DNA from: Candidatus Shapirobacteria bacterium | GTDB taxonomy: Bacteria; Patescibacteriota; Microgenomatia; UBA12405 | Length of the DNA: 64,000 nucleotides | Assembly (NCBI GenBank): GCA_041663285.1 | Contig: JBAZSP010000001.1 | Location: forward strand, 81,838-145,837 | Direction of reading: 5' to 3' | Shown: positions 3,082 to 62,028 of the stretch, one piece after another | Position numbering within the stretch: position 1 is the first letter of the stretch | Layout of the letters: every line of letters begins with the position of its first letter | Translations under genes and position numbers: made by a program | The notes under the pieces: model-generated | Database searches by the model: none | What the model was told of the DNA's origin: nothing | The model's input: only the letters and a program-made list of their open reading frames with translations

Positions 3082-3660
3082 TCAGATTTCAAGTTTTTCC
3101 CAATCGACTAGCTTCCACCAGTTTTTTACAAACTCCGCCCGGTTGTTTTGGTATTCCAAATAGTAGGCATGTTCCCACACGTCCAGCACCAGTTTAGCTT
3201 TCCAGCCTAAGATCCCCAGCATGTTATGTTTTTCAATTTGCCCAACAATTAGCTCGCCAAAGTCATTTCCCCACAATACCGCCCATCCTGAACCTTCGAC
3301 TGTTATGGCGGCACCGCTAAACTCTTCCGCTAATTGCTCCCACGACCCGAAGTTTGCGTTAATGGCGTCTAACACCTTTCCTGAAGGCTTGTTATCTTCC
3401 TTTGCCGGGCCCATTTTTTCCCAAAAAAGCTCGTGAAACCTTACTCCGTTATAATTAAAATTGAAGTTTTTCCACCAATCTTTTGAGTTAATCTCTATCT
3501 CTTTCTTTCTAAATTTATCAAGCTTCTCCAGTGCCGTATTAGCGCCATTCACATAAGCTGCCTGGTGTTTGTCGTGGTGCAGTTCGACTGTTCTTTTAGA
3601 AATTACCGGCTCCAGAGCATCGTAGGAGTAGGGGAGTGAAGTTAAAGTTAATTGTTTCAT
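3082..3660 (-). CDS. sod: Fe/Mn superoxide dismutase
   Basis: Shows the hallmark N- and C-terminal SOD segments HHDKHQAAYVNGANTALEKL and DVWEHAYYLEYQNNRAEFVKNWW, 192 aa. Fe versus Mn specificity cannot be told from sequence alone. Confidence 0.9.
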   Translation of the reverse strand: MKQLTLTSLPYSYDALEPVISKRTVELHHDKHQAAYVNGANTALEKLDKFRKKEIEINSKDWWKNFNFNYNGVRFHELFWEKMGPAKEDNKPSGKVLDAINANFGSWEQLAEEFSGAAITVEGSGWAVLWGNDFGELIVGQIEKHNMLGILGWKAKLVLDVWEHAYYLEYQNNRAEFVKNWWKLVDWEKLEI

Positions 3661-8606: not shown

Positions 8607-8849
8607 GTGCGTATAAAACTTTTTGATCGGGGCTCGCCTCAAGGCAAGCAGCTTTTTGCCAATATCGAAACTTTATGTAAGCGCCTTCAAATCGACTACG
8701 ACCCTGAGTATATTAAAGACATGAGCAGAGTATATTCTATGGGTATTCAGGGCAAAACAGTCCTTATGGTCGACAACGAAGTTGCTTTTGTCGACCGCTA
8801 TCCTTCTATCCGCGAGCTAGAAACAATTCTACAGGACTATATTAAATAA
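8607..8849 (+). CDS. small thioredoxin-fold-like protein lacking the CxxC motif
   Basis: 80 aa with a beta-alpha-beta pattern like the MTH895/Thioredoxin_3 group, but no cysteines at the active-site position. Low confidence. Confidence 0.3.
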   Translation: MRIKLFDRGSPQGKQLFANIETLCKRLQIDYDPEYIKDMSRVYSMGIQGKTVLMVDNEVAFVDRYPSIRELETILQDYIK

Positions 8850-9614
8850 GTTAGCTGCATTCTTGTCAATAATTTCTTCCGTTTCTTCAAATCCCATCGT
8901 CCAAATTTTAGCTATCTTTTTATAAATAAATTCCACATATTCCGGTTTATTAGTCTGCCCTCGGTAGGGCAGGGGAGCCAGAAAAGGGCTGTCGGTTTCG
9001 GCCAATAATCTATCTTTCGGTATCGCCGCTACTACTTCACTTAGTCCAACTTCATAAGTCAAATTCCCGTCAATGCCAAAATACCAACCCTGTCCCAAAT
9101 CCAGCACCTTTTTTATCCTTTTCTTACCGCCGGCATAGCAGTGGAACACACCTTTTAAGTGCTTATATTCGGCCAATATTTTTATCACCTCATCTGCCGC
9201 TTTTCGGGCATGGATGATTAAGGGTAGGTTATTTTTTTGAGCTAATTCAACTTGCCCCCTAAATAGCCTTTCCTGCTCTACCGGGCTTCTCTCGCTTTCA
9301 TCCGGTGGGGGAGGGCTAAAATCTAAACCCGTTTCCCCTATTGCCACCACATTTTTATTTTTATCCCCATCGATCAATATTCTTAACTCTTCCAACTGCT
9401 TTTCGATTGGAGTTGTATTTTCTGGATCAGTGCATTGGGGGTGCACCCCCACACTTGCCCAAAACTGGCCAATATTTTGCTTCGCCAGTTCAACGTTCTC
9501 TCTCGAATCCGCCAGATTGCTCGCAGCTAAAATTATTTTTACACCTTGAGCCAAAGACAGCCCCGCCGCTGCGGGGCAAAATCTTTTTGATAAATGGGCA
9601 TGAGTATCGATCAT
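8829..9614 (-). CDS. tatD: TatD-family metal-dependent hydrolase/DNase
   Basis: N-terminal IDTHAHL, GETGLDF, and conserved His/Asp ladder, 261 aa. Confidence 0.85.
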   Translation of the reverse strand: MIDTHAHLSKRFCPAAAGLSLAQGVKIILAASNLADSRENVELAKQNIGQFWASVGVHPQCTDPENTTPIEKQLEELRILIDGDKNKNVVAIGETGLDFSPPPPDESERSPVEQERLFRGQVELAQKNNLPLIIHARKAADEVIKILAEYKHLKGVFHCYAGGKKRIKKVLDLGQGWYFGIDGNLTYEVGLSEVVAAIPKDRLLAETDSPFLAPLPYRGQTNKPEYVEFIYKKIAKIWTMGFEETEEIIDKNAANLFNIVL

Positions 9615-18622: not shown

Positions 18623-20578
18623 ATGATCAACTTAGGTAACGGAAAAAAGTATTATCCACTATTTACTGTACTATTTTTACTGTTATCTTTGGTTGGAGCC
18701 ATTGCCTTAGTCAAGACTTCCCAGGAAACCCGCAACAAAGCTGCCGGTCCTGCCGGCCAGTTAATCTGCCGTCGTGATAGTAACACCTCAATTACTTTAA
18801 TCAACAACACCGGCCGCGATATTCCTTACGAGATCCTTGAATTTAGAGGTTGCGACTGTAATGTCTCCCAATGTCTCACCGGTCGGACTAAATATATGCA
18901 GCCAACTGTTAGAAACGGTGAAACCAAAACCGAGTCAATGTCTCCGGCCAGGTGCGAAGCAGCTCAACTCGATATCAAAAGTCTGGTTACCGAATTTCCT
19001 TGTATCGACCCAAACACTGGAAGAAGCTGGGATGGTGGCACCGCCTTCGCCATTGACCGTGACTGTAGCATCTGTAATAATCCCACCCCCACCACCTCCT
19101 TGCCCACAGTATCCTGTAATGGCATCACCGTCACCAATGGTTCCGGCCAAGACATGAGCTCTTCTTCTGCAGAAGACCTGAAATTAGCTTTTCCGGGCGA
19201 GACTCTAAACATATCGTCAAGCTTTAGTCCAAATGGCTTACTTTTTTTTGCCAGGGTAAATGCTTATGCTACCAGAATCGATCTTCCTGCTAACCGGGTT
19301 GGTGATCTTTTCACTTTTCCGGCCAACAAGGTACCTGCATCCAATTCCGCCTCCGGCACAATTACCCTTCCCACCCAGCCTGGCACCTATTACTACAGCC
19401 TGGCTGCAAACGCCTATGAGAGTTCATCCTGCCGCTATCTTTGCGCCACCGATGGTAATTTCCGCCAAAACGGTGCCGGCACCGGTAGTTGTGATACATC
19501 AACTCAAGGCTGGCCTTCCGTCGGTCGTTGTACTAGTAATGGTTGTACCAAAAACTTAGCCATAAAAGTTATTCCCCAAAACTTATCCTGCACCAACTTA
19601 TCGATCACTAATTCCCAAGGTGTCAGTATCAGCTCCAGCAGCGCCGGTGACGTTAAAATCGTTAATCCAGGTGAGCGGTTAAATATTTCCACCAGTTTTT
19701 CCTCTTACGGTTTAGTCTATTATGCTCAGATGAAGAGTTTCGACGGTAATATTGCCGTCCAACCGGACAGAACCACCGGAATATTTACCAATATTCCTCA
19801 AAACGGCGTTCCTGCCTCCAGTAGCCCCATGTCGGATGGTTTTAACGCACCTGCTCAAGCCGGTACCTACATCTATCATTTCGCCACCAATGTTTTCGAT
19901 GATCCTCAATGTCAAATTCTATGTTCGGTCGATAGTAACCTCCGGCGTAATCCCTACGGTAGCGGTCATTGCAACGATCAGGCAACATCTCCCGCCTGGC
20001 CAATCATTAAACAATCCGGTTGTACCAGCGGTTGTCTTAAAAAATTAGTTATCCAGGTTAAAGAAACTTCTCCTTCTCCTTCTCCAACTCCCACTCCGAC
20101 TTCTACTTCTACTCCTTCTCCAACACCGACTACCACTCCCAGAAACACGCCGACTATCACCCCCACCCGGACGCCAACCCCAACTCCGACTACCCGCTTG
20201 ACGCCAACCCAAACCCCCACCGGAACCCTGAGACCTACCCAAACCCCCACTAACACCCCGGTTTCTTCGCCTACTCCAACCACTCCGGCTGAGTTAGTCT
20301 GTCAGTACTTGAAAGTCTACGACCAGAACTGGTCAGAGATTACCGACTTATCTACCTTAAAGCTTAATCAAAGGGTCTATTTTGCTACCAAAGAAACAGG
20401 AACCACCACTGCTACGCGGGCCAGGTTTAAGATTACTGTTAACGGTAATGCGTCTGACTGGCAAGAAACCTCCAGCAAAAATAGTCAGGGCGAACTCTAT
20501 ATTTCCTACACCATCAATCAGTCAGGTAGTTATGAAATCCAAGCCCAGGTATACCTGGAAGGCGTTGGACGGAGATAA
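18623..20578 (+). CDS. large secreted protein: N-terminal anchor, two tandem ~150-aa Cys-containing repeat domains, PT-linker, C-terminal domain
   Basis: N-terminus LLSLVGAIALVKTSQETRNKAAG. The internal repeat NGITVTNGSGQD...CTKNLAIKVIPQ parallels NLSITNSQGVSI...CLKKLVIQVKE. A PT-rich linker spans 20060-20290. Confidence 0.5.
   Translation: MINLGNGKKYYPLFTVLFLLLSLVGAIALVKTSQETRNKAAGPAGQLICRRDSNTSITLINNTGRDIPYEILEFRGCDCNVSQCLTGRTKYMQPTVRNGETKTESMSPARCEAAQLDIKSLVTEFPCIDPNTGRSWDGGTAFAIDRDCSICNNPTPTTSLPTVSCNGITVTNGSGQDMSSSSAEDLKLAFPGETLNISSSFSPNGLLFFARVNAYATRIDLPANRVGDLFTFPANKVPASNSASGTITLPTQPGTYYYSLAANAYESSSCRYLCATDGNFRQNGAGTGSCDTSTQGWPSVGRCTSNGCTKNLAIKVIPQNLSCTNLSITNSQGVSISSSSAGDVKIVNPGERLNISTSFSSYGLVYYAQMKSFDGNIAVQPDRTTGIFTNIPQNGVPASSSPMSDGFNAPAQAGTYIYHFATNVFDDPQCQILCSVDSNLRRNPYGSGHCNDQATSPAWPIIKQSGCTSGCLKKLVIQVKETSPSPSPTPTPTSTSTPSPTPTTTPRNTPTITPTRTPTPTPTTRLTPTQTPTGTLRPTQTPTNTPVSSPTPTTPAELVCQYLKVYDQNWSEITDLSTLKLNQRVYFATKETGTTTATRARFKITVNGNASDWQETSSKNSQGELYISYTINQSGSYEIQAQVYLEGVGRR
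20060..20290. repeat. Pro/Thr codon repeat (PT linker) inside CDS 18623-20578
   Basis: Encodes SPSPSPTPTPTSTSTPSPTPTTTP...; the antisense strand gives spurious ORFs 19978-20283 and 20045-20242. Confidence 0.8.
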
Positions 20579-20581
20579 AAT

Positions 20582-22072
20582 ATGTTTCAAGACACACTAA
20601 AAAATAATCTGAAAATTATCGCTATCGCAGTGTCTTTGCTGACTTTAGTTGGCGCCGTCGCTTTAGTAAAAAGAAGACAGGAATTGCGCCGAAGTGCCGC
20701 CGAAGAAGTAGTCAATACTTTCCGCAGTAAGCCCAACGACGGCCTATGGAAAAAAGTCAGCTATGATGCCTATGTCCAAAACGAGCCAGCTGGGTGTCAA
20801 GGTGTTTCCGCTTCACTCTGTCAGCCAAAACCATATCCGTCTGCCGGTAATTGGAATCAGTCGTCATATTCCGATACTGGTTGGCAAAGCGGTTACAGTG
20901 TCGATAGCTCTTGGTGGCAAGGTCAGGATTGGGCTTGCTCACGCAACTTTATTCAATCAGGAAGTCAGATAATTGGGCCGGTTGCTCCATCGAATGGTCT
21001 CTTTCCCAATATAAACGACACTACCGGCTTATACCGCCGAAAGTTTACCTTGCCCCAAGGTGTTGATATCGTTCGGGCTAACATCAAATTATTCAGCGAC
21101 AACAAGGTCATAGTCTACATTAATGGTAATCTGGTCAATAGTTCTTACAACGAACTTTGCTACGAATATTCCATTAATCCCAACTTCCTTCAGTCCGGCC
21201 AGAATATCTTAGCCATCCAGCTTTCCAACGATGCTGTTAACCAGGCCGATAATCCGCTGGGGGTTGCTTACGAGTTAAATGTCGTTACCTCCTCCGAACC
21301 TCCGATAGTAGTCCCCACCAATACTCCGATCCCCACTGTCACCTCTACCCCCTCCCCGGTTCCCACCTATAGTCCCTGTGTTATTAGATTCGATGTTTTG
21401 GTTACGCCCACTCCAACACTGACACCGACAAATACCCCAACCGGCTCGCCCTCACCCACCCCCACCAAAACTCCGACTCCAACCATCACGCCGACTCCCA
21501 CCAACACGCCCACCGGTACCCTAACCCCAACTCTTTCTCCCACCAATACTCCTACGAACACCCCAACTTCAACCCCAACTCCGACGCGTACTCCAACCCC
21601 CACCAACACGCCAACACCTACTAATACGCCCCGGCCCACTAATACCCCGGTTTTAAGTTCCACCCCCACCCCCACTTTTACCCCATCTCCGACTGGCACA
21701 CTTAGACCTACCAACACCTTAGTTCCCACTAACACCCTCCGGCCTACCAATACATTGATTCCTACCAGTACACCTCGGCCCACCTCAACTCCGGTACTTC
21801 GCTGTGGTTCTACTTGCGGCGACTCCATTGGTGGTCAATGTCCGGCCGATCATACCTGCTATCAAAACACCTGTGTTCTTAATGCTTGCCTAGAAGGTGT
21901 TCCTTGTGACGCCAGCCAGTGTGTTACTTTAAAGCCAACCAAAACCCCGACCCCAATCGTCGCCTCTCCCACCCGGATTACCCTGCCTGATGCTGGCTTT
22001 GACTTCCCCGTAAAGGCAATTGCCATTGTCGGCATCATCGTCACCCTCTTCGGTTTCCTGATTTTGTTGTAA
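20582..22072 (+). CDS. large secreted protein paralogous at the N-terminus to 18623-20578, with ~170-aa PT-linker, Cys-rich module and C-terminal LPDAG + hydrophobic anchor
   Basis: N-terminus [24 protein letters not shown] matches the LLxLVGAxALVK..QE.R..AA of the upstream protein. PT linker spans 21290-21800. Then [41 protein letters not shown]-terminus is [31 protein letters not shown]. Confidence 0.5.
21290..21800. repeat. Pro/Thr codon repeat (PT linker) inside CDS 20582-22072
   Basis: TPTxTPT units repeated over ~170 codons; the antisense strand gives spurious ORF 21367-21828. Confidence 0.8.
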
Positions 22073-27908: not shown

Positions 27909-28746
27909 TTTGATATACCAGGTTAACCGAGGTCGCGAAAACCTTGTTGGTATCGTTTAGCCTGTCAATTAATTCTATCGGCCAAAGTAGAAGCGACATC
28001 AGTTTCGATTTTTTCCGGTTTGGAGTAAACCGATTAAAGTTTTTTAACCAGCCCTTCTCGACCAAATTTTTACCGATTCCGTAAAAAACAAAATGGGAGA
28101 AGGGTAAACAAAAATGTGTTGCTCGCCACTTTAACTTTGTCTCAAAACCCGTTTTTAACAACTTTAACTCAATATCTTTTTCAGCATACAGCCTCTGATG
28201 ATCAGCCCAAATTCCCGACAACCACCAAATATGTGAAGGTAAGTGTTTTTTTGTAAGCCTCTCCAGTATCCAGTTGGCCGGATCCCATGCCCAGGGGTAG
28301 TTTATATTCGGAACAGTTATCATTACTATCCCACCCGGTTTTAGTACCCTAAAAATTTCCTTAAGGGCTAAGACGTCATCGGGGATGTGTTCGAGGATTT
28401 CTGACGCAATTACCCTATCGAAAAAATCATTTTTAAAAGGTAATTGGGTCGCGTCGGCCACCAAGAGTTTCTCATTACTGCTGGCCCCATTTTTTGCTTG
28501 CTCTAAGTATCTGGTATTAAGGTCTATACCCCAAATTTTTGTTTTCGGCTGTAATTTTGCCAAGTTATTAACGTAAAAGCCGCGACCACAACCCACCTCC
28601 AAAATTTTTTCTCTTCCTACTAAGCCAATATTTTTCAAAACCAGCCCAGCCCGTCTTTTATATGCCGGGTCAGGCTCGCGGGACAGTAATTTGTCAATTT
28701 GTATTAAATAGTTTTTCATATTTGTCCAACGTCCTTTGGTAATCAA
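27892..28746 (-). CDS. class I SAM-dependent methyltransferase
   Basis: Motif I ILEVGCGRGFYVNNLA and downstream motifs; 284 aa. The true start is probably the internal Met (MKNYLIQ...). Confidence 0.65.
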   Translation of the reverse strand: MITKGRWTNMKNYLIQIDKLLSREPDPAYKRRAGLVLKNIGLVGREKILEVGCGRGFYVNNLAKLQPKTKIWGIDLNTRYLEQAKNGASSNEKLLVADATQLPFKNDFFDRVIASEILEHIPDDVLALKEIFRVLKPGGIVMITVPNINYPWAWDPANWILERLTKKHLPSHIWWLSGIWADHQRLYAEKDIELKLLKTGFETKLKWRATHFCLPFSHFVFYGIGKNLVEKGWLKNFNRFTPNRKKSKLMSLLLWPIELIDRLNDTNKVFATSVNLVYQIRKPG

Positions 28747-29824
28747 ACACCTTTTTTACTGTCGCCGACCTTGACTTAAAATTCCTGCCCAAACCCTCAA
28801 TTATTCCCCGGCCCAGACTCTTTTCGTCTCTGGCTTTCACTATCAGCCCAAAGCCGGTCTCCTGCACCACCCATCTGGCTCCGGGGATGTTGGTACAGAC
28901 CGATGGGGTTCCTGCCAGCATTGCTTCAATTTGCGATGACGGGAAACAATCAGTTCGTGATGGTTGTACATAAAGGCTAAGTGATTTATAAAACGCAAAC
29001 AGCTCTCGGGGGTCATTGATAAGTCCTAAGAGTTTTAAATGTTTTTTGTAACGTTTTATCAAGCCTTCAATTTTTTGCCAAAACTTTTCGTAGTTAATTT
29101 TGTAATCTCCGGCCAAAACCATCATGGCTCTTGGGAATCTCCTTATGACTATCGGAATCGCTTCAAGCAGGTAATCGACTCCTTTCTCTTCAACAAATCT
29201 GCCGGAAAAACCAATCAATATTTTATTTTCCAGGCCGTACTTTTGTTTAAAATTAGCCACCTCGCTTGCCGAAACACTTGGTATTTCAAAAAGTGGCAGT
29301 ATCACCCTCCACTTGTCCTCACACCCCAATAGCAATTTCGACTGCTTGGCATAATCTTCTGATTGAATCAAAACCGCCCTGGCTCTTTTGATCGACCATC
29401 TTGTAGTTAAATAATATACAGCTTCCGCTATTTTGGCTATTACTCCACCATCTTTTGGCAATACTAGATCACCGTTGTGGATCAGGTAAAGCTTTTTTTT
29501 GAAGATTCCGGCGACCATGGCTGTTAACACTACCTGTTGCAGGGGGAGATATGCCACCACCGACTCATTCTCCCTTACCAGCTTGATCAGGGAAAATAAA
29601 AACCCGGGAGTAACCACGCTCCTTAACAGCCGGAACCAATATTTAAGCCTGACCACCTTTACTCCGGTAATGTTTTCTGTTAGCGGCGACTCCCTATTGT
29701 GTTGACTGGTTAGCACTGTCACTTCATGGTCCCGTTTCGCCAGGCCTTCAGCCACCCGGGCGGCATACTGGGTCAGTCCTGTCCAGTGAGGCCGATAAAA
29801 AGTCAACACAAAAAGCAGCTTCAT
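28694..29824 (-). CDS. GT-B fold glycosyltransferase, family 4-like
   Basis: N-terminus MKLLFVLTFYRPHWTGL (internal start chosen to avoid overlap), C-terminal EX7E-type region GRFVEEKGVDYLLEA. Confidence 0.7.
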   Translation of the reverse strand: MKLLFVLTFYRPHWTGLTQYAARVAEGLAKRDHEVTVLTSQHNRESPLTENITGVKVVRLKYWFRLLRSVVTPGFLFSLIKLVRENESVVAYLPLQQVVLTAMVAGIFKKKLYLIHNGDLVLPKDGGVIAKIAEAVYYLTTRWSIKRARAVLIQSEDYAKQSKLLLGCEDKWRVILPLFEIPSVSASEVANFKQKYGLENKILIGFSGRFVEEKGVDYLLEAIPIVIRRFPRAMMVLAGDYKINYEKFWQKIEGLIKRYKKHLKLLGLINDPRELFAFYKSLSLYVQPSRTDCFPSSQIEAMLAGTPSVCTNIPGARWVVQETGFGLIVKARDEKSLGRGIIEGLGRNFKSRSATVKKVFDYQRTLDKYEKLFNTN

Positions 29825-29825
29825 A

Positions 29826-30368
29826 TTATGTTCGTATATCGCTAAGATAATTAATTCCTTTAGCCTCAAGACAGGCGTGTTTCTGTTTGCCAAAACAATA
29901 GATTTTAGTTTTTAAATTTTTCGCCAAATAATCAGCTATCAGGTTATCGTCATCCACATACCATTCCGCTTTGATTTTTTTTAGTATTTTTTCCTTAAAC
30001 AAATACGGTTGTTCGTTCTTCGAGTTTAAATAAATCTTATGGAAATAACTATTGATCCCTCTTCTTTCCAGCCATGCCCGGGTTTCATTTTTTAAAAAGC
30101 TATACCGTCCGGAAATTATGTAAAGGCGGTATCGTTGGCTTCGGCTAAGATCCGCCACTGCCTTAAGATTTTCTTTAATCGGTGGTCTAAAAAGATAAAA
30201 GTGCGACAACTTTCTCACTGCAATTTCAAATCGGGAGGAGGGGATTCGGTAATTAAGTGTTTTTTCTTTCGTCCCCCTAAACCATTTCTCAATCAAGGAT
30301 TTCGGAATTAACGGTGGCTTATCAACAATCACCCCATCAAGGTCGAAAGCAATTCTTAATCGTTTCAT
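29826..30368 (-). CDS. HAD-superfamily hydrolase/phosphatase
   Basis: Motif I IAFDLDGVIVD at the N-terminus, 180 aa. Confidence 0.5.
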   Translation of the reverse strand: MKRLRIAFDLDGVIVDKPPLIPKSLIEKWFRGTKEKTLNYRIPSSRFEIAVRKLSHFYLFRPPIKENLKAVADLSRSQRYRLYIISGRYSFLKNETRAWLERRGINSYFHKIYLNSKNEQPYLFKEKILKKIKAEWYVDDDNLIADYLAKNLKTKIYCFGKQKHACLEAKGINYLSDIRT

Positions 30369-40360: not shown

Positions 40361-40433
40361 TTTTATTTAGTATTTAGAAATTAGAATTTAGAAATTGAAT
40401 AAAAATTTTGAATTAGAAATTAGAAATTAATTT
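40361..40433 (+). promoter_or_regulatory. AT-rich block with iterated (A)TTAGAAATT units immediately 5' of gatB
   Basis: tatttagaaattagaatttagaaattgaataaaaattttgaattagaaattagaaattaattt ends at the gatB ATG. A near-identical block lies 5' of dnaK. Confidence 0.5.
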
Positions 40434-47665: not shown

Positions 47666-48003
47666 TGTACCGAAACACTTCACTTCCCAAAAAATTCTTT
47701 CCCAAAAATCTTTTGCTAAGTTTTATTATTCTGTTTTGGTTACTTACTTTCCTCTACATATTTTTTATTCCTCCCTTAAGCATTCCGAACATATTCGGAC
47801 TTTTTGGCCTATTATTTATGGCCGTATTTTTGTCCGTCAAGATGCTGACCCAAAAAACAAAACTTTCTCTTTGGCTGGCTTTTTTTATACTGGCATGGCC
47901 GCTATTATCACTAACCCGCCTTCTTACCCTCCAAAACATCTGCCTGACTATCGCCATGTTTGCTTCCCTTTTCTTACTCTTCTCTTCAAAACATACCCCT
48001 TGA
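47662..48003 (+). CDS. hypothetical small membrane protein
   Basis: 113 aa with three hydrophobic helices. Its 3' end overlaps the hrcA promoter, so the coding status is uncertain. Confidence 0.25.
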   Translation: MMYRNTSLPKKFFPKNLLLSFIILFWLLTFLYIFFIPPLSIPNIFGLFGLLFMAVFLSVKMLTQKTKLSLWLAFFILAWPLLSLTRLLTLQNICLTIAMFASLFLLFSSKHTP

Positions 48004-48037
48004 CACTGTTTAGCACTCCCATTATTATATTGCTAAC
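48000..48037 (+). promoter_or_regulatory. sigma70-type promoter (TTGACA-17-TATTAT) overlapping a CIRCE-like inverted repeat directly upstream of hrcA
   Basis: ttgaca at 48000-48005, then a 17-nt spacer and tattat. TTAGCACTC at 48010-48018, then 9 nt, then tattgctaa at 48028-48036. The left half of the CIRCE consensus TTAGCACTC-N9-GAGTGCTAA matches exactly; the right half keeps TGCTAA. Confidence 0.6.
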
Positions 48038-48789: not shown

Positions 48790-49302
48790 ATGAAAATTGT
48801 AAAAAAACCGGCCGTTGATATTTCAGCCGGCTCAAGTCAAAAAATAAAAGAATTGGAAAGTCGGGCAGCCGAACTGGAAGAGAGCTGGAAACGTTCTCTG
48901 GCCGACTATGCCAACCTGGAAAAAAGAATTGAATCCCAACGCCAGATTTACGCCACTTTGGCGTCGGTTTCGATTATATCTAAAATGATAGAGGTTCTTG
49001 ATGATTTATTGTTAGCCCACACACACCTCGAAGACCAAGGATTACAAATGACCATTAATAAATTTTTATCGGTCCTCAAGTCAGAAGGGTTGGAAGAAAT
49101 CAATGTCAAGGTTGGTGACCAGTTTGATCCTCTCACGATGGAGTGTGTAGAAGCCGCTTCGGGTGAAAAAGACATGGTGATGACCGTAAAGCGAAAAGGT
49201 TACTCTTTAAATAGCCAGTGCCTTCGTCCGGCTCAGGTAGTTGTCGGTCGGGGAGATACCGCTATTCCGGCCTCGTCTCCTTCCGGCACTGCCGTATCTT
49301 AA
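48790..49302 (+). CDS. grpE: nucleotide exchange factor GrpE
   Basis: Coiled-coil N-terminus (ELESRAAELEESWKRSLADYANLEKR) and C-terminal beta-domain; operon position between hrcA and dnaK. Confidence 0.8.
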   Translation: MKIVKKPAVDISAGSSQKIKELESRAAELEESWKRSLADYANLEKRIESQRQIYATLASVSIISKMIEVLDDLLLAHTHLEDQGLQMTINKFLSVLKSEGLEEINVKVGDQFDPLTMECVEAASGEKDMVMTVKRKGYSLNSQCLRPAQVVVGRGDTAIPASSPSGTAVS

Positions 49303-49339: not shown

Positions 49340-49407
49340 TAAACAACAAATTAAACATTAGAAATTTATTAGAAATTATAAATTTTAAATTAGAAATTAA
49401 ATAAAAT
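49340..49407 (+). promoter_or_regulatory. AT-rich block with three ATTAGAAATT units immediately 5' of dnaK
   Basis: aaacattagaaatttattagaaattataaattttaaattagaaattaaataaaat is followed by ATG. Its 3' portion aaattttaaattagaaatta parallels aaattttgaattagaaatta before gatB. Confidence 0.5.
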
Positions 49408-51321
49408 ATGCCAAACAAAATTATCGGTATCGATCTGGGTACCACCAACTCCTGTGTTGCAGTTATGGAAGCCGGCCGGCCTAAAGTAATATTAACTTCC
49501 GAAGGCCGTAACGTCATCCCTTCTGTGGTCGAGCCAGTCAAAGGCCTGGTTGGTGATTTAGCTAAAAGGCAAATGGTTTTAAACCCGACCAATACAGTTT
49601 ATAGTGTTAAGCGCCTTATGGGGCGTCGTATTGATGACGCTGAAGTCAAAAAAACCCAAAAAATTTCCTCATACAAGATTGTTGCCGGCAAAGACAATAT
49701 GGCAGCTGTTGAAATCAATGGGAAAATTTTTACCCCTCAGGAAATTTCGGCCAAGATACTTCAAAAAGCCAAGGCCGACGCCGAAAGGTATTTAGGTGAA
49801 AAAATAACTGATGCCGTCATCACCGTCCCGGCCTACTTTGACGATTCCCAGCGTCAGGCCACCAAACAGGCTGGCGAAATCGCCGGTTTGACTGTAAAAA
49901 GAATTGTTAACGAGCCAACCGCCGCCTCATTGGCCTACGGCTTAGACAAAAAGAAGAAAGGAATTATTGCTGTCTATGACCTAGGTGGAGGTACCTTTGA
50001 CATCTCTGTCTTGGAAATCGGTGATGGTGTTTTCGAGGTTAAAGCCACCAACGGTGATACCTTTTTAGGTGGTGATGACTTTGATCAGCGCGTCAGCTCT
50101 TGGTTGCTTGAAAAGTTCCAAAAAGAAAATGGGGTTGATCTGACCAAGGATCCTCAAGCCCTCCAAAGAGTCCGTGAGGCCGCCGAAAAAGCCAAAATTG
50201 AGCTTTCCAATGCCGTCGAGTCCGAAATTAACCTACCCTTCATTACCCAAAAAGACGGCCAGCCTCTTCATTTAACCACCAAGTTAACTCGGGCTGAACT
50301 AGAAAAAATGGTCGACGACCTTATCCAAAGTACTATCGGGCCGGTCGAAAAATGTCTCAAAGACGCCGGTGTGTCCAAGTCCGAAATCTCTGACATAGTT
50401 ATGGTCGGCGGCATGACCCGTATGCCCAAAGTGCTGGAAGTGGTCAAAGAATTTTTTGGTAAGGAGCTAAATACTACCGTAAATCCGGACGAAGTAGTCG
50501 CCATCGGCGCTGCTGTCCAGGGGGCTGTCCTTACCGGTGAAGTTAAAGACATAGTTCTGCTTGATGTTACCCCCTTAACTCTCGGCATCGAAACGGCCGG
50601 TGGTATCAAAACGCCTTTAATTGATCGGAATACTACTGTTCCCACCAAAAAATCGCAAGTTTTTAGCACCTATTCCGACAATCAGCCTCAGGTAGAAATC
50701 AACATACTCCAGGGTGAACGTCCCATGGCCACCGACAACAAGTCGCTTGGCCGCTTTGTCCTCGACGGCATTCCCCCTTCCCCCCGCGGTATTCCCCAAA
50801 TCGAAGTCACCTTCGATATCGATAGTAATGGAATTTTAAATGTCACTGCCAAAGACAAAGGCACCAATAAAGAACAAAAAATATCTATCCAAAACGCCAC
50901 TAACCTGACCAAAGACGAAGTTGAAAAAATGAAGCAGGAGGCCGATGTCCATGCCCGGGAAGATCAGGAAAAGCACGATCTGGCCGAAAGTAAAAACAAG
51001 CTGGACGCGGTGATTTTTCAGGGTGAGAAGTCATTGAAGGAGTTCGGCTCTAAATTAAAAGCCGAAGATAAAGCCAAGGTTGAGGAAAAGCTTAAATCCA
51101 GCAAGGATGTCTTGACCAAGGCAGATGCCAAAAAAGACGATTTCGACAAGACCGCTGAAGAATTAACTCAAATTCTACAAACCATTGGCGCTGCGATGTA
51201 TCAGTCAGAGCCGCCCAAAACTGCAGAAGGCCAGCAAGGTCAGGAGCCACCCCAGCCGGAAGAAGGTAAAGACACCAAAAAATCCGACAAAGACGCCGAA
51301 GAAGGGGAGATTGTAAAATAA
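49408..51321 (+). CDS. dnaK: molecular chaperone DnaK (Hsp70)
   Basis: [30 protein letters not shown], and a C-terminal EEGEIVK tail; 637 aa. Confidence 0.95.
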
Positions 51322-51322
51322 A
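51296..51322 (+). repeat. direct repeat copy 1 (27 bp) = last codons and stop of dnaK
   Basis: ccgaagaaggggagattgtaaaataaa is identical to 51839-51865. Confidence 0.9.
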
Positions 51323-51345
51323 TATAATTAATTATTAAAACAAAG

Positions 51346-51798
51346 ATGAACAGAGCAGTCGAAAAAGATGCTGGATATTCTCCAGGCCCTTACTGGGAAG
51401 ATCTTGGCAGACTTAAACCGCAAGTTACAGATAGCATTAGAAAAATAAACCGAAATAAAATTAGCGATCCGGGTCTTTGCCCTACGGGATTATTTTATGA
51501 ACATGCCCAAGGAGAACAAGTCGATAGTACCGGACGTGCACTAGTTGCTGTTGCTCAAGGTGGTTTATTACATGCTGCTCTATCCGAAAGACTTCCCGTT
51601 GTTCGCCTGGCGGTTTTTCACTTGGCTGGGGTTGGTACTGATGAAAGGCATGTTACCTTGGTTACTTTCTACACTGATACTAATAACCCAGCTACTTTAA
51701 AAACGCTGCAACAAGAACTTAAGGGGGCAACCGGTACGGTGAACGCCCAAATCAAGAGTCTAGGTGGCAGTAAGTTAGTACCGTATCCTGGTAATTAA
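51346..51798 (+). CDS. hypothetical protein (150 aa) carried on the dnaK-dnaJ insertion
   Basis: Intact ORF with no recognisable motif. Codon choice (gct, gtt, tta, ggt, cta) visibly differs from the C-ending codon preference of neighbouring genes. Confidence 0.4.
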   Translation: MNRAVEKDAGYSPGPYWEDLGRLKPQVTDSIRKINRNKISDPGLCPTGLFYEHAQGEQVDSTGRALVAVAQGGLLHAALSERLPVVRLAVFHLAGVGTDERHVTLVTFYTDTNNPATLKTLQQELKGATGTVNAQIKSLGGSKLVPYPGN

Positions 51799-51838
51799 GA
51801 CAGTTAACTAACATATCATTTATACCTCATTCGACGTA

Positions 51839-51865
51839 CCGAAGAAGGGGAGATTGTAAAATAAA
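51839..51865 (+). repeat. direct repeat copy 2 (27 bp), exact duplicate of the dnaK 3' end
   Basis: ccgaagaaggggagattgtaaaataaa; the flank gacg...ccgaag is also shared with copy 1. Confidence 0.9.
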
Positions 51866-51902
51866 ACTTAATGACGCATAATCATGTGTCTTTTTGTTAA
51901 GT

Positions 51903-51932
51903 TGTAGAGACGCCAGATCTGGCGTCTCTACA
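51903..51932. promoter_or_regulatory. perfect palindrome with 13-bp arms and a 4-nt centre (tgtagagacgcca-gatc-tggcgtctctaca), 20 nt upstream of dnaJ
   Basis: Exact reverse-complement arms 51903-51915 and 51920-51932. There is no downstream T-tract on either strand. Confidence 0.7.
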
Positions 51933-51952
51933 GTATAGTTATATAAAAAAAT

Positions 51953-52822
51953 ATGAAACGTGATTTTTACGAAATCCTAGGTGTGGCCAAGTCGGCTTCC
52001 AAAGACGAGGTCAAGTCCGCCTATCGAAAAAAAGCCCTTGAGTGGCACCCAGACCGGAATAAATCTGCTGATGCCGAGGAAAAATTCAAAGAAATCAATG
52101 AGGCTTACGAGGTTCTTTCAAATGACCAAAAAAAATCAGCTTACGACCAGTATGGCCATGCTGCTTTCGATCCGGGCTCCGCTGGCCCTTTTGGCGGTCA
52201 CACTTACACCTCCCGAAACGGCTCTTCCAATTTTACCTGGACCAGTTCCGGTGGCCAGAATCCCTTTGGCGACGAAAACGGTTTCGATTTTGGTGGTTTC
52301 AGTAATCCCTTTGATATTTTTGAACAAATATTCGGCACCAGCTTTAACTCCTCCTCCCACCGTAGCCAACGCTTACCGACATACAAACTGCAGCTAAGCT
52401 TTTTGGAAGCCGCCAACGGCGTCGAAAAAGAGATAACTATTGAAGGCAGTCACAAAAAAATCAAAATTCCCGCCGGAGTTGACGATGGCCAAAGGATAAG
52501 GTTCTCCGATTTTATTCTCTACATCGACGTTATGCCCGACAATACCTTCAAGCGTGAAGGCAACGATGTTTTTGTTAATGTCGACATTACTGTTACCCAA
52601 GCCATTATGGGCAGTGAAATCGAAGTCCCCACCATTAGTCAACCGGTAAAAATCCGGGTTAAACCGGGCACTCAGCCAAACACCCTGGTTCGCCTTCGCC
52701 ATCAGGGAATAAAAGATGTTAATGGCTACGGGGTTGGTGATCTATATATCCGTTTGAGTGTGATTATCCCCGCCAAGCTCACCGCTCGGCAAAAAGAGCT
52801 TCTTAAAGAGTTGGGGATATAA
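51953..52822 (+). CDS. dnaJ: J-domain co-chaperone, DnaJ/CbpA type without the Cys-rich zinc-finger region
   Basis: J-domain DFYEILGV...[13 protein letters not shown] with HPD, a G/F-rich region and C-terminal substrate-binding domains; no CxxCxGxG repeats; 289 aa. Confidence 0.8.
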
Positions 52823-54138: not shown

Positions 54139-55586
54139 ATGGCTAAATCGGATAAAAATATTACCTATCGCCCGCCCATAGTTACTATAATGGGGCATAT
54201 TGATCACGGCAAAACGACTCTTCTTGATAAAATCCGTAGTACTTCAGTCTGGGCCAAAGAAGCCGGCGGCATAACCCAGCATATCAGCGCCTACCAGGCA
54301 AAAGTGCAATTAGCTCAAGGCCAAACATCCGTCATCACCTTTATCGATACCCCTGGCCATGCCGCCTTTTGCCAAATGCGGACTCGCGGAGTTCAGGTAA
54401 CCGATATTGTAATTCTGGTTATTTCGGCCGTAGATGGAATAATGGCCCAAACCAAAGAATGTATCGATATTATCAAGAAAGCCAACCTGCCGTTTATCGT
54501 TGCCATTAACAAGATCGATCTTCCCGGTGCCAATTTGGATAAGGTAAAAGGCCAGCTGGTAGAGCTTGGGTTTACCCCCGAAGACTATGGCGGTCAATTA
54601 GCCTGTATTCCGGTTTCCGCCAAGACTGGCGAAGGCATCCCCAAACTTTTAGAGATGGTAATTTTAAATGCCGAACTTTTAGAGTTACAGCTTGAAGAAA
54701 ATGCTCCGTTTGAGGGGATAGTAATTGAGTCCCGGGTTGACAAAAACCGTGGTCCGGTAGCTGTCATGGTGGTTAAAAAGGGAATTATAAATATTGGCGA
54801 TACCATATTTTATGGTGAAGCGCCGGTAAAGATTAAAGCCATGATTGATTATCAAGGCCAGAACATTCCGTCCGCTGGCCCCAGTGTCCCCGTCGAAATT
54901 CTTGGATTTAGCCAGGCACCTCTGGCCGGTGGTTTGCTTACAGCTTCCCCGGTTGTACCGAACCCGGCTTTGTCCCTTTCTGTCACCTCTAAAGCCCATA
55001 CTCCCGGCCAGCCCCAACTCCCCATTATTTTAAAAGCTGATGTTGGGGTACCCTTGAAGCTATCCTCGGTTGCCTGCCCGACGATGTTCTAATTATCGCT
55101 TCCGGGATTGGGCCGGTTACTGATAACGACATTTTCTTAGCCCAAACATCCCAAGCCGAAATCTTTGCCTTCAATATATCGGTTCCCAAAAACGTCAAAA
55201 CTCTGGCCCAAAACAGCCAAGTGAAGATTTTTGATTCCAAGATTATTTATGAAATTATCGACAATATTCAGGGCCAAGTTTTAAAGCTTCTGGAGCCGAC
55301 TATCAACGAGACTGTTTTGGGTGAGGCGGGTATTAAAGCCGAATTTAAGATCGAAAAAAACCGGATTGCCGGGGTTCAGGTGACCAAAGGTGAGCTTGCC
55401 AAGGGTGACCAAGTTCATCTGCAGCGGGCTGGAAAAATAATCAAGGATACCCGGATTGAAGGTATCCACCAAGCCAAATCCGTTGTCGACAAGGTTAAGA
55501 TGGGGATGGACGGTGGTATGACTTTTAAGCCTTATGTTGATTTTAAAATTAATGATGTTATAATAGCCTATAAGAGTGACGATTAG
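54139..55586 (+). CDS. infB: translation initiation factor IF-2, short form lacking the N-terminal extension; reading frame broken at a GGGG run near 55045 (frameshift or sequencing error)
   Basis: G-domain IVTIMGHIDHGKTTLLDKIR, DTPGHAAF, NKIDL in ORF 54139-55092. The collinear continuation ...GTLEAILGCLPDDVLIIASGIGPVTDNDIFLAQTS... and the C-terminal beta-barrel (ORF 55221-55586) lie in the frame shifted by one nucleotide, starting at 55047. Confidence 0.8.
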
Positions 55587-56452: not shown

Positions 56453-56935
56453 GCCAGCAGGGTCGATGCTTTTCCTTACCAATCAGTTTGTTGCAGAAAA
56501 TTTGGGATTAAAAAATATTAATATTATTTTTATTATCAATTAATAAATAATTTCTATATGCCGCCCAGATATAATAGTGAGCAGCTCAGAAGGTTTTTAA
56601 CAGAAGCGCAGGTCCCCAAAGGTTGTAAATTAAAAAATCGTCCCCCAAGCAATCCCTCCTTTCAAGCCTATGGACGACGTGTTTTGGATATAGAAAACTT
56701 CGTTAGAGTTATCAAGGACACAGGAATCAGCGGAATACTAAATTGCCGAGGGCTATCTCCCCGTCAAGGTGGAGGATCTTGTGGTAGGTGTGACGTTAGA
56801 GATACCGGAGTGGTTGTAGACACGAACAAAGATAGTGATTTCTAGTTATGTTATAATCCTCTCACGCTCTTTTGCCGGTGTTTGGGTAGCCTTTCTCAAA
56901 CTTATTTTATTATTACCGGTATCAGCGACTAATTT

Positions 56936-57251: not shown

Positions 57252-59456
57252 ATGAATAAAATTTCTCAAGATATCCAAGTTGGAGATACAGTTATTAGTC
57301 TCGAAACCGGAGTATTAGCTCCTCAAACCAACGCCTCGGTAGTTGCCCGTTACGGCAATACTGTGGTTCTGGCTACTGTGGTTATGGGCAAAGTTGATGA
57401 GTCAAAAGACTATTTTCCACTTTCAGTCGAATTTGTCGATAAATTATATGCTGGTGGCCTGATCAAGGGGGGTAAATGGATTAAGCGTGAAGGTGGCCCA
57501 ACCGACACCGCCATTCTTTACGGCCGGATTATTGACCGTTCAGTCAGACCTCTTTTTCCTGCTGGTTTTCAAAATGAAGTCCAGCTAGTCGCTACTGTAC
57601 TAAGTAATGACAAAGAGCACGATGCTGTTATTCCAGCCTTTTTAGCTTCGTCTGCTGCCCTAGCTATTTCCGACATTCCTTTTAGCTCACCTGTTTCGGC
57701 TATTCGGGTAGGTCTCAAAAACGGCCAGCCGATAATCAGCCCGAGCCTTACCGAACTTAAGGATTCACAAATGGATTTGCTTATCTGCGTCGGTCCGGAG
57801 GGGATTAACATGATCGAAGCCGGAGCCTCAATTATCGACAATGCCACCGTTTTAAACGGCATTGAATCAGCCTATGAGGTTGGTCAAAAGGTCAACCAGC
57901 AGCTGATGGAATTCGTTCAAAAATGTTCCAAGAAAAAAGTTGAATTCGAAAAATTCGCCCCCAGCCAGGAACTTCTGGCCGAGGTCGAAAAGCACCTAAC
58001 CACCGACATCAAAGACTTTTTAGAAACCGGTGCCGATGGTAAGCATGTCGCTGACGAGGCGGTTATTAAAGATAAGATTACTGGCATCTATCAGCCAAAA
58101 ATCGACTCCAAAGAAATTAATCCCAATATTTTGATGATGGCTGTCGATACGGTGCTTAAACAAGCTTTTAGGCAGCACACCCTGACTACCAAAATCCGTT
58201 ACGACAAAAGGGCCCTCGATGAAATCCGTCCCCTGACGATTGATGTTGGCGTTTTGCCTTGTGTTCATGGTTCAGCCATGTTCCAGCGTGGTTTGACCCA
58301 AGCCATCACCGTCACCACCCTAGGATCTTTGGCCGAAAAACAATTTTTGCAGGATTCAACTGGCGAAACCACCAAAAGATACATCCACTATTATTCAGCC
58401 ATGCCTTTTTCCACTTTTCAAATTGGACGGTTCGGCCGGCCGGGCAGAAGGGAAATCGGTCATGGATCCTTAGCCGAAAAGGCATTATTGCCGGTTATTC
58501 CGTCAGAGGAAGAATTTCCGTATACTATTGCTCTCACCTCCGAAGTTCTTTCTCAAAACGGCTCCTCATCGATGGCTTCTACTTGTGGCTCCACCTTATC
58601 TCTTCTTGACGCCGGTGTACCTATAAAAGATCTGGTTGCCGGAATTTCTATCGGCATGGTTTCCGGTGGCGCGGATGACTATCTTTTACTTACCGACATC
58701 GCCGGTATCGAAGATCATTTTGGTGATATGGATTTCAAAATTACCGGCACCAAAACCGGTATTACCGCTATCCAGCTGGATATTAAACGGGCAGGCTTAA
58801 CTCTAGAAATGATTAAAGATACCTTTGTTGCCAGCACCAAAGCCAGGCTCTTTATTCTAGACAAAATTTCCCAAGTACTTTCTTCCCCGCGGCCCACCCT
58901 TTCACCCTTTGCTCCAAAAATCCGGTTAGTCAAATTACCGGAAGACAAAATCGGCGAAGTCATTGGCTCTGGTGGTAAAACCATCAAGGCTTTAATGGCC
59001 AAATTCCAAGTCCAAATCGATATTGATGATTTTGGTAACGCCTCGATTTCTTCACCCGATATTGATCAGGTCAATGCCGCTGCTTACGAAATCGAATCAA
59101 TGATTAAGGATGTCCAGATCGGGGAGGAATATGACGGCATCGTTACACGGGTAGAAAACTACGGTGCCTTTATTGAGTTTTTACCCGGCCGCGAAGCTCT
59201 GCTTCACGTCTCCGAAATGGCTCAAGGTTTTATCTCCGACCCTTCCGCCATCATCAAAATCGGAGATCGGCTTAAGGTCAAAATTAGCGGCTTTAACGAT
59301 AACCATCAAATAAAACTGGCTGCTCCGGAATTCAAAAACACTCACCAGGGCGAGGAACGAAGCCCCGGTCCTCCAAGTCGGACAGGTTTCGGTGGCGGTA
59401 ATCGGAACTTTGGCAGATTTAACTCTGATTTGCGTTCAAGTCGGCCAAGACGCTAA
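57252..59456 (+). CDS. pnp: polyribonucleotide nucleotidyltransferase (PNPase)
   Basis: Two RNase PH domains, KH (GSGGKTIKAL) and S1 (GEEYDGIVTRVENYGAFIEF) domains, and an RG-rich tail; 734 aa. Confidence 0.9.
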   Translation: MNKISQDIQVGDTVISLETGVLAPQTNASVVARYGNTVVLATVVMGKVDESKDYFPLSVEFVDKLYAGGLIKGGKWIKREGGPTDTAILYGRIIDRSVRPLFPAGFQNEVQLVATVLSNDKEHDAVIPAFLASSAALAISDIPFSSPVSAIRVGLKNGQPIISPSLTELKDSQMDLLICVGPEGINMIEAGASIIDNATVLNGIESAYEVGQKVNQQLMEFVQKCSKKKVEFEKFAPSQELLAEVEKHLTTDIKDFLETGADGKHVADEAVIKDKITGIYQPKIDSKEINPNILMMAVDTVLKQAFRQHTLTTKIRYDKRALDEIRPLTIDVGVLPCVHGSAMFQRGLTQAITVTTLGSLAEKQFLQDSTGETTKRYIHYYSAMPFSTFQIGRFGRPGRREIGHGSLAEKALLPVIPSEEEFPYTIALTSEVLSQNGSSSMASTCGSTLSLLDAGVPIKDLVAGISIGMVSGGADDYLLLTDIAGIEDHFGDMDFKITGTKTGITAIQLDIKRAGLTLEMIKDTFVASTKARLFILDKISQVLSSPRPTLSPFAPKIRLVKLPEDKIGEVIGSGGKTIKALMAKFQVQIDIDDFGNASISSPDIDQVNAAAYEIESMIKDVQIGEEYDGIVTRVENYGAFIEFLPGREALLHVSEMAQGFISDPSAIIKIGDRLKVKISGFNDNHQIKLAAPEFKNTHQGEERSPGPPSRTGFGGGNRNFGRFNSDLRSSRPRR

Positions 59457-61455: not shown

Positions 61456-62028
61456 ATGTCTACCAATCTCCAAAAGTTAAAATATATCGCTAATCTTGTC
61501 GAGCAGTGCCAAAAGTGTCCGCTTTACCAGACCGCTACCCATGGGGTTCCCGGTGATGGTAATCCCGAAGCCCGGATTTTTTTTATCGGTGAAGCTCCGG
61601 GTTATTTTGAAGATCAGCAGGGCTTACCGTTTGTAGGCAACTCCGGTAAATTACTCGACAAGCTTTTAGCTTCAATTAGCCTTAACCGCCAGGATGTTTT
61701 TATCGGTAACATTCTTAAGCACCGTCCTCCGGATAATCGCGACCCCTTGCCGGACGAAATCAAAGTTTGCACCCCCTACCTTAAGGCCCAACTCAAAGTC
61801 ATTCAGCCCAAGGTAGTCATAACTCTTGGCCGTTTTGCTCTTAATTATTTTTTACCGACTGATTCAATCAGTCAGGTGCACGGCCAGGTAAAAAAGATTC
61901 TCTGGCAGGATCTTCATTTTATCCTTATCCCGGTGTATCACCCTTCGGCTGGTCTCCGAAATGGCTCAATGCTCCGGGCCTTAGAAACCGACTTTATAAC
62001 CATTAAAAATTATTTAAACACTCAATAA
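61456..62028 (+). CDS. uracil-DNA glycosylase, family 4 (Fe-S type)
   Basis: CQKCPLYQ...PGDGNPEARIFFIGEAPGYFEDQQGLPFVGNSGKLL and C-terminal HPS; 190 aa. Confidence 0.85.
   Translation: MSTNLQKLKYIANLVEQCQKCPLYQTATHGVPGDGNPEARIFFIGEAPGYFEDQQGLPFVGNSGKLLDKLLASISLNRQDVFIGNILKHRPPDNRDPLPDEIKVCTPYLKAQLKVIQPKVVITLGRFALNYFLPTDSISQVHGQVKKILWQDLHFILIPVYHPSAGLRNGSMLRALETDFITIKNYLNTQ

Follow-up and report, generated by a model that had tools for sequence, protein, structure and literature searches.

A likely recent insertion of an apparent orphan gene behind dnaK in a Shapirobacteria heat-shock operon, bounded by a perfect 27-nt direct repeat

Introduction

How can a gene with no recognisable relatives come to stand inside an essential, stress-regulated operon and leave that operon undamaged? 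The question is raised by a 64,000-nt stretch of DNA from Candidatus Shapirobacteria bacterium (assembly GCA_041663285.1, contig JBAZSP010000001.1, forward-strand positions 81,838 to 145,837), referred to here as the window, with positions counted from its first letter. Between dnaK and dnaJ the window carries an open reading frame (ORF) of 150 codons, ORF150, within a segment enclosed by two copies of a 27-nt sequence. A preliminary description of this DNA, made from its letters, had proposed that an element inserted at the dnaK stop codon. Our analysis indicates that a recent, lineage-specific insertion is very likely, in which 516 nt of new DNA and a 27-nt duplicate of the target were added 1 nt past the dnaK stop. 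Little is understood about how the tiny, streamlined genomes of Patescibacteria acquire genes, and few insertions keep both of their boundaries intact. This locus shows the joining of an orphan gene to such an operon at single-base resolution. It is a single event, and its value is that of a well-documented case and a lead rather than a discovery.

A perfect direct repeat encloses one gene behind dnaK

The 27-mer CCGAAGAAGGGGAGATTGTAAAATAAA occurs at 51296-51322 and again at 51839-51865, the copies lying 543 nt apart and agreeing at 27/27 positions. About 1e-7 exact repeats of this kind are expected by chance in 64 kb, and the window has no other long exact direct repeat of this two-copy kind, confirming the claim that the dnaK 3' end is perfectly duplicated. 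Copy 1 comprises the final 26 nt of dnaK, TAA stop included, plus 1 nt; the gene ends there as …GAA GAA GGG GAG ATT GTA AAA TAA, followed by one base. The 516 nt of unique DNA between the copies consist of a 23-nt leader, ORF150 and 40 nt of non-coding sequence. The segment is laid out as follows.

51296..51322, + strand: direct repeat copy 1, the last 26 nt of dnaK including its stop, plus 1 nt; exact match
51323..51345, + strand: leader of the insert, 23 nt, AT-rich and unstructured, with no Shine-Dalgarno motif, like most genes here
51346..51798, + strand: ORF150, apparent orphan protein-coding gene, 150 aa, pI 8.7, no transmembrane segment, intact from ATG to TAA
51799..51838, + strand: non-coding 3' part of the insert, 40 nt, with no significant fold and no attC-like structure
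51839..51865, + strand: direct repeat copy 2, in frame with ORF150 behind two stops
51866..51952, + strand: native dnaK-dnaJ spacer, with two hairpins (together -33.7 kcal/mol, z = -7.2)
51873-51900, + strand: weak terminator-like hairpin with a T-run, in the native spacer
51903-51932, + strand: conserved 30-nt perfect palindrome, in the native spacer

The shared flank GACG that had been described beyond the repeat did not hold up, since it requires a 2-nt indel, and anchored extension on either side of the 27-mer revealed homology no better than that of shuffles. By eye, the 27-mer has no dif-like half-site symmetry. Copy 2 shares the ORF150 reading frame (…VPYPGN*DS*LTYHLYLIRRTEEGEIVK*); this match was given no weight, as it would arise by chance in one case out of three and two stops separate copy 2 from the ORF. 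An exact 18-nt direct repeat elsewhere in the window (59208-59225 and 61952-61969, 2744 nt apart) was rejected as an insertion boundary. Its copies fall within a PNPase S1 domain and a UDG-family gene, in different frames, and were judged a coincidence.

The source is a metagenome-assembled genome (MAG), so the 27-mer could in principle mark a chimeric join of two unrelated molecules, made during assembly or amplification. The short ENA and JGI contigs that cover the locus end inside dnaK and dnaJ, indicating a complex assembly graph around it. Against this, three further assemblies were examined, and each gave both repeat copies in a contig that is an exact substring of the window: an ENA MEGAHIT contig (k=141, 1301 nt), a Logan contig (k=31, 1080 nt, in two samples) and a JGI contig (1300 nt). 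The repeat is thus not an assembly artefact, because a 27-nt repeat cannot collapse or create a false join at k=141 or k=31. In addition, the ORF of the insert is complete and preceded by a leader, and the whole fits exactly between the gene end and the native spacer. We consider a chimeric join extremely improbable.

Relatives have short spacers at the same site

The nearest DnaJ relatives are only about 75% identical to the window DnaJ, and hence the collections hold no strain- or species-level relative. The four nearest contigs share with the window the order rmuC-hrcA-grpE-dnaK-dnaJ-nusA-infB; their dnaK-dnaJ spacers measure 17, 61, 73 and 68 nt, and DnaK ends in …AEEGEIVK*, …AEEGEVIK* or …AEEGEVVQ*. 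The palindrome GTAGAGACGC…GCGTCTCTAC is found in the spacer of 3/4 of these contigs, and the hairpin of one (locus L085) is identical to that of the window. Once 543 nt are taken out of the window, the spacer measures 88 nt and has the conserved hairpin 20 nt before dnaJ. The deletion restores the ancestral layout, which argues for a recent, lineage-specific insertion. In line with the proposal that the gene end was left whole, the ...AEEGEIVK* tail is intact and the relatives' short spacers carry no insert. The comparison of spacers that had been suggested thus yielded short, ancestral-type spacers but no empty-site allele.

For a wider survey, metagenome contigs were scanned with a degenerate DnaK-tail pattern, giving 110 loci. 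A second DnaK-tail copy was present only in the window's own contig (L094) among the surveyed loci, about 105, with an alignment score of 55 against a shuffle maximum of 23. Decayed tail duplicates were sought in the other long-spacer loci, where two (L147 and L114) were marginal; a 12-mer in L118 lies within a second ORF homologous to one in L161 and was dismissed as coincidence. At the positions of the 27-mer, the sequences of 113 relatives depart from it by a median of 5-6 nt, and only one relative comes within one mismatch. Look-ups found no contig on record that encodes exactly this DnaK or DnaJ, and a contig scan with the DnaK C-terminus gave no Shapirobacteria among the matches listed, which were distant taxa.

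ORF150 looks like a real, foreign-looking orphan gene

At this composition, a run of 150 open codons would arise by chance with a probability of 6e-5. In a coding log-odds model trained on the window's genes, the ORF150 frame was the only one of six with a positive value (+0.079, compared with a gene median of 0.159; several real genes score lower). The G+C content at its three codon positions (GC1/GC2/GC3) is 0.59/0.45/0.30. With a GC3 of 0.300 it is the lowest of 56 window ORFs (z = -3.4), a value reached by 0/482 same-length windows of other genes. Alanine is mostly encoded by GCT, whereas window genes prefer GCC, and the threonine codon ACC is used less. The atypical codon usage that had been reported is therefore supported by GC3 but not by the synonymous-codon score, which lies at the low edge of the window's range yet within it. 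A Shine-Dalgarno-like motif precedes 8/54 window genes, and the AT-rich leader that lacks one is thus typical here.

No homologue was found in any sequence or family search. Among 5.8 billion proteins, a word-indexed search gave no match but ORF150 itself, and the sole database protein identical to it is annotated in a Candidatus Shapirobacteria MAG. Exhaustive phmmer against 1.8 billion cluster representatives returned itself and P0122, a translated tandem repeat whose 16-20-aa match, summed over about 21 copies, is spurious. Pfam, PHROGs, PADLOC, NCBIfam and PDB sequences gave zero matches, and viral, plasmid and metagenome collections held no relatives of ORF150 or the insert. A phage tblastn match (E = 0.03, 32% over 66 aa) falls in a GalT C-terminal domain on what is probably a bacterial scaffold. 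This match was treated as noise because ORF150 gave no signal for the GalT Pfam family and no plasmid match. On the strand opposite the GalT domain, the scaffold itself (L197; MT839337.1, 1-1703), deposited as 'Bacteriophage sp.', has an ORF of 405 aa that looks by eye like a multi-pass membrane transporter; the scaffold is probably bacterial DNA.

The intact 150-aa ORF of no recognisable family is thus upheld by an open frame and by the sequence searches, while the structure prediction proposed alongside them gave only an unusable single-sequence AlphaFold model (pLDDT 34.8). The protein is predicted to be soluble and basic (pI 8.7), with no hydrophobic segment. By its coding score, GC3 and absent homologues, ORF150 looks like a real orphan gene of foreign appearance.

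ORF150 is most likely read through with dnaK

The host locus has the order hrcA-grpE-dnaK-dnaJ and an inverted repeat of the controlling inverted repeat of chaperone expression (CIRCE) type at its promoter, as HrcA/CIRCE operons do. Pfam identified rmuC, hrcA, grpE, dnaK, dnaJ, nusA and infB. Together with the promoter-like site and CIRCE upstream of hrcA, these calls bear out the canonical heat-shock operon of the preliminary description.

48000-48028, + strand: sigma-70-like promoter, TTGACA-17-TATTAT, 11/12, overlapping the CIRCE operator directly upstream of hrcA
48010-48036, + strand: CIRCE operator upstream of hrcA, 2 mismatches to TTAGCACTC-N9-GAGTGCTAA
48038..48772, + strand: hrcA (Pfam HrcA)
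48790..49302, + strand: grpE (Pfam GrpE)
49408..51321, + strand: dnaK, 637 aa, with the clade-conserved tail ...DAEEGEIVK* (Pfam HSP70, E=1e-243)
51953..52822, + strand: dnaJ, 289 aa, with J domain and C-terminal domain (Pfam)

The ATG of ORF150 lies 24 nt past the dnaK stop. The scan gave no + strand promoter-like site in front of ORF150. The fold at the dnaK-ORF150 junction (z = -0.9) and that of the 72 nt 3' of ORF150 (51799-51870, z = -0.53) were no better than shuffles. Since neither a structure nor a terminator-like site lies between the two genes, co-transcription of ORF150 with dnaK is plausible. The insert also lies upstream of the native post-dnaK hairpins, the first of which has a T-run. 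Judged from these sequence features, ORF150 is most likely read through with dnaK from the CIRCE/HrcA-controlled heat-shock promoter. A stem-loop after dnaK in the Bacillus subtilis operon attenuates or ends the transcript, and the hairpins downstream of ORF150 probably do the same to the dnaK transcript here. The earlier suggestion that ORF150 is co-transcribed with the chaperone operon is thus plausible with respect to dnaK, while strong hairpins follow copy 2.

The dnaK-dnaJ gap is variable across the clade

A perfect GC-rich hairpin with a stem of 8-16 bp stands 8-23 nt past the dnaK stop in nearly all of the ~105 related Microgenomates loci (L083-L196). Its stem sequence is lineage-specific (GTAGAGACGC, CACACCCGGC, TGATACCCCGC, AGGGCGGAC and others) with the pairing kept; no T-run follows the palindrome and no Rfam family matches it. 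Probable roles for this conserved element between dnaK and dnaJ are attenuation, 3' stabilisation or processing.

Spacer lengths between the two genes are bimodal, with about 72 loci at 0-110 nt and about 33 at 281-1661 nt. Spacers of at least 250 nt occur between dnaK and dnaJ in 31% of loci and between dnaJ and nusA in 35%, compared with 2% between grpE and dnaK. The long dnaK-dnaJ spacers hold at least a dozen unrelated small + strand ORFs, most of them near-orphans; the types include a DUF3850/ASCH family (5 loci), small membrane proteins and a ~300-aa membrane protein. One family (L187a/L187b/L117) has six members only, with a tandem pair in L187. A C-terminal strand-helix motif that ORF150 seemed by eye to share with other ORFs of this gap was discarded (hhalign probability 0.1-0.2%, HMM scores no better than those of shuffles).

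This variability raises the alternative that ORF150 arrived by homologous recombination in the flanking conserved genes after DNA uptake, as one of many exchangeable occupants of a slot. The frequency of long spacers at this position and the diversity of their small ORFs fit such an exchange. Yet a double crossover in flanking genes makes no direct repeat, and in other lineages the cargo lies downstream of the hairpin rather than at the dnaK stop. ORF150 is also unrelated to every other ORF found in the gap, and no strain-level relatives exist to show exchange, none exceeding 75% DnaJ identity. We regard this route as quite unlikely.

In the long-spacer relatives (loci L087-L196) the extra DNA, 0.3-1.7 kb, lies between hairpin and dnaJ and has no repeats. 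Among the surveyed loci, only the window has extra DNA between the dnaK stop and the hairpin, which argues that its insertion was separate from the older gene gains in the gap. It is also the only gap gain with recognisable boundaries. Taken together, the window case and the variable gap in relatives suggest that the region behind dnaK tolerates, or even attracts, new small genes.

A crossover at an att-like segment is tentatively favoured

A scan of 48 window ORFs gave no recombinase, transposase or integrase domain, and the neighbours that are annotated have housekeeping functions; the statement that the locus lacks a recombinase gene thus stands for the insert and for these ORFs. The window contains no tRNA genes, and Rfam and tRNA scans of insert and window gave nothing relevant.

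For the route of entry we lean, tentatively, towards a single crossover through a 27-nt att-like segment, site-specific or RecA-mediated. In this account a small circular DNA would have carried the same 27 nt as the chromosomal dnaK tail, and one reciprocal exchange between the two would have left two identical copies, of which the upstream one completes dnaK. If a site-specific recombinase acting in trans was the catalyst, the result would resemble a remnant of the cis-mobilizable element (CIME) type flanked by attL and attR; alternatively, RecA could have acted in a Campbell-type event. The excised or empty state of the locus would read dnaK tail directly joined to ACTTAATGACG, and the circular form would carry the junction ...CATTCGACGTA, a single 27-mer and TATAATTAATT.... 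Having no mobility functions of its own, the insert is probably now fixed and immobile. In favour of a crossover, the block of identity takes in the 3' end of dnaK and reaches 1 nt beyond its stop. Target-site duplications are ordinarily far shorter than 27 nt, and by analogy the length suggests an att core rather than a target duplication.

Several points weigh against a crossover. Neither the insert nor the scanned window ORFs encode an integrase, about 110 relatives show no element with an integrase at the dnaK tail, and the 27-mer and the degenerate DnaK-tail pattern are absent from 2.9 million viral contigs. Because relatives' tails differ at a median of 5-6 positions, the incoming copy would have to originate from the same lineage, whereas a duplication derived from the target explains perfect identity with no such assumption about the donor. 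At 0.54 kb with one gene, the insert falls between the sizes of microCIMEs and classical CIMEs. No excision product or empty-site allele was seen, the exact DnaK and DnaJ look-ups having given no contig.

The competing account is that 27-nt staggered nicks or a template switch opened the target, a 516-nt foreign or ectopic fragment was joined, and fill-in duplicated the 27 nt. Candidates for the agent are a transposase of unknown type or a Cas1-like integrase, either supplied in trans, and also break repair or template switching in replication. Such a duplication would account for 27/27 identity despite the divergence among relatives and for the abrupt end of homology at both edges of the 27-mer. 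It also agrees with the failure to find an att-bearing element, an integrase or a viral tail copy in the relatives, window ORFs and viral contigs, and any downstream edge past the stop codon would automatically keep dnaK intact. On the other hand, its length exceeds that of ordinary target-site duplications, terminal inverted repeats (p = 0.28-0.91) and a transposase are lacking, and neither the window nor the fetched loci contain a second copy. If edge positions in the 88-nt spacer were random, one lying 1 nt past the stop would occur in a few per cent of cases. We rate a target-derived duplication as slightly less likely than a crossover, the remaining probability being shared by slot exchange through the flanking genes, complex events and artefact. 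The preliminary description had left both routes open, interpreting the locus as the footprint of an element, perhaps decayed or non-autonomous, with either a target-site duplication or attL/attR. An insertion that regenerated the dnaK end withstands our analysis; evidence for a mobile element was not obtained.

A bolder version of the crossover or staggered-cut readings would be that Patescibacteria have a hitherto undescribed kind of minimal cassette, carrying a single gene and integrating at the dnaK stop, and that the insert is a live example. Such cassettes would use a 27-nt att site or a ruler-type 27-nt staggered cut, with the recombinase encoded elsewhere. We consider this very unlikely. 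If true, orphan cargo would gain heat-shock control by entering at the stop of the highly expressed, stress-induced dnaK, and the small genes in the same gap in a third of the relatives would be older, eroded products.

Other features of the window

Downstream of dnaJ, infB (54139-55586) is split into ORFs of 317 and 121 aa by a 1-nt frameshift at a G-run at ~55043-55046 (KADV|G..TLEAI). The gene is intact in relatives, at 470-484 aa; the split is either a sequencing or assembly error or a pseudogene. AT-rich 53-mers built of AAATTAGAAATT-like units lie directly upstream of gatB (40378-40430) and dnaK (49348-49400) and are 81% identical, with a weaker copy of this type at 56498-56550; those upstream of gatB and dnaK may be a shared promoter or regulatory element. 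Genes on the minus strand of the window (e.g. 8829-9614, 28694-29893 and 3082-3660) have the lowest synonymous-codon and coding scores, which suggests strand-specific compositional bias and not foreign origin. Periodic DNA of the ACTCCGAC/CCAACC type encodes long repeat tracts rich in proline and threonine at 1500-1900 and 20160-21700. A sortase-domain protein has such tracts, as do two large proteins encoded downstream of one with an Ig-like domain; the tracts look like repetitive linkers, possibly of surface proteins.

Comparison with known element classes

Several classes could be set aside. The insert is not an autonomous element, as it has no mobility gene, and it is not a tandem duplication, as it has no similarity to neighbouring DNA. 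A prophage, satellite or integrative and conjugative element (ICE) does not fit 516 nt with one ORF, no PHROGs match and no viral relative. A miniature inverted-repeat transposable element or insertion sequence (IS) was rejected because alignment of the insert ends was no better than shuffles under three boundary definitions, no transposase was found, no other copy exists in the 64-kb window or fetched loci, and ORF150 occurs once in the protein collection. IS1634-type insertion sequences, casposons and Cas1-Cas2 integration duplicate tens of target bases, and casposons favour gene 3' ends. Elements with such long duplications end in terminal inverted repeats and depend on a transposase or Cas1, which they may encode themselves; by contrast, the insert has no terminal inverted repeats and the scanned window ORFs encode neither enzyme.

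The insert resembles an integron gene cassette in its size (about 0.5 kb) and in carrying one promoterless and often orphan ORF behind an upstream host promoter. It was rejected as one because it has no attC-like palindrome (51799-51870, z = -0.53), no GTTRRRY boundary core and no IntI or attI. Moreover, insertion of an integron cassette does not duplicate 27 nt.

In the minimal mobile elements of Neisseria, the genes found between fixed, conserved neighbours vary (PMC3787668). The dnaK-dnaJ gap likewise behaves across the clade as a slot with alternative unrelated genes, at least 250 nt long in 31% of loci. Unlike it, minimal mobile elements move by flanking homologous recombination and have no bounding repeats; the variation here is between species rather than strains, and the window insert lies upstream of the hairpin.

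CIMEs are elements left in streptococci by ICEs or by integrative and mobilizable elements (IMEs), at the 3' ends of rpmG, rpsI, fda, rplL or tRNA genes (PMC5704250, PMC7563491). Both CIMEs and gene-less microCIMEs are common at the 3' ends of housekeeping genes in these bacteria, with sizes of 1.2-13 kb for classical CIMEs and 130-220 bp for microCIMEs (PMC7563491, PMC5704250). The present insert differs in that no cognate integrase or parental element was found in the ~110 relatives, the viral contigs or the window ORFs, in that it is not in tandem with an active element, and in its 0.54 kb, which lies between the described size classes; its att sites are putative. Neither a parental ICE/IME nor a cognate integrase is known to us for dnaK or Patescibacteria. 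It is like a CIME in being a short insert between identical direct repeats, one of which completes the 3' end of a housekeeping gene, here dnaK, and in carrying cargo only: it has no integrase, relaxase or transfer genes, and its single ORF matches no family. Thus, even minus the cognate integrase or parental element that is one of the marks of the class, a CIME-like remnant appears, by analogy, to be the closest known kind for the insert behind dnaK.

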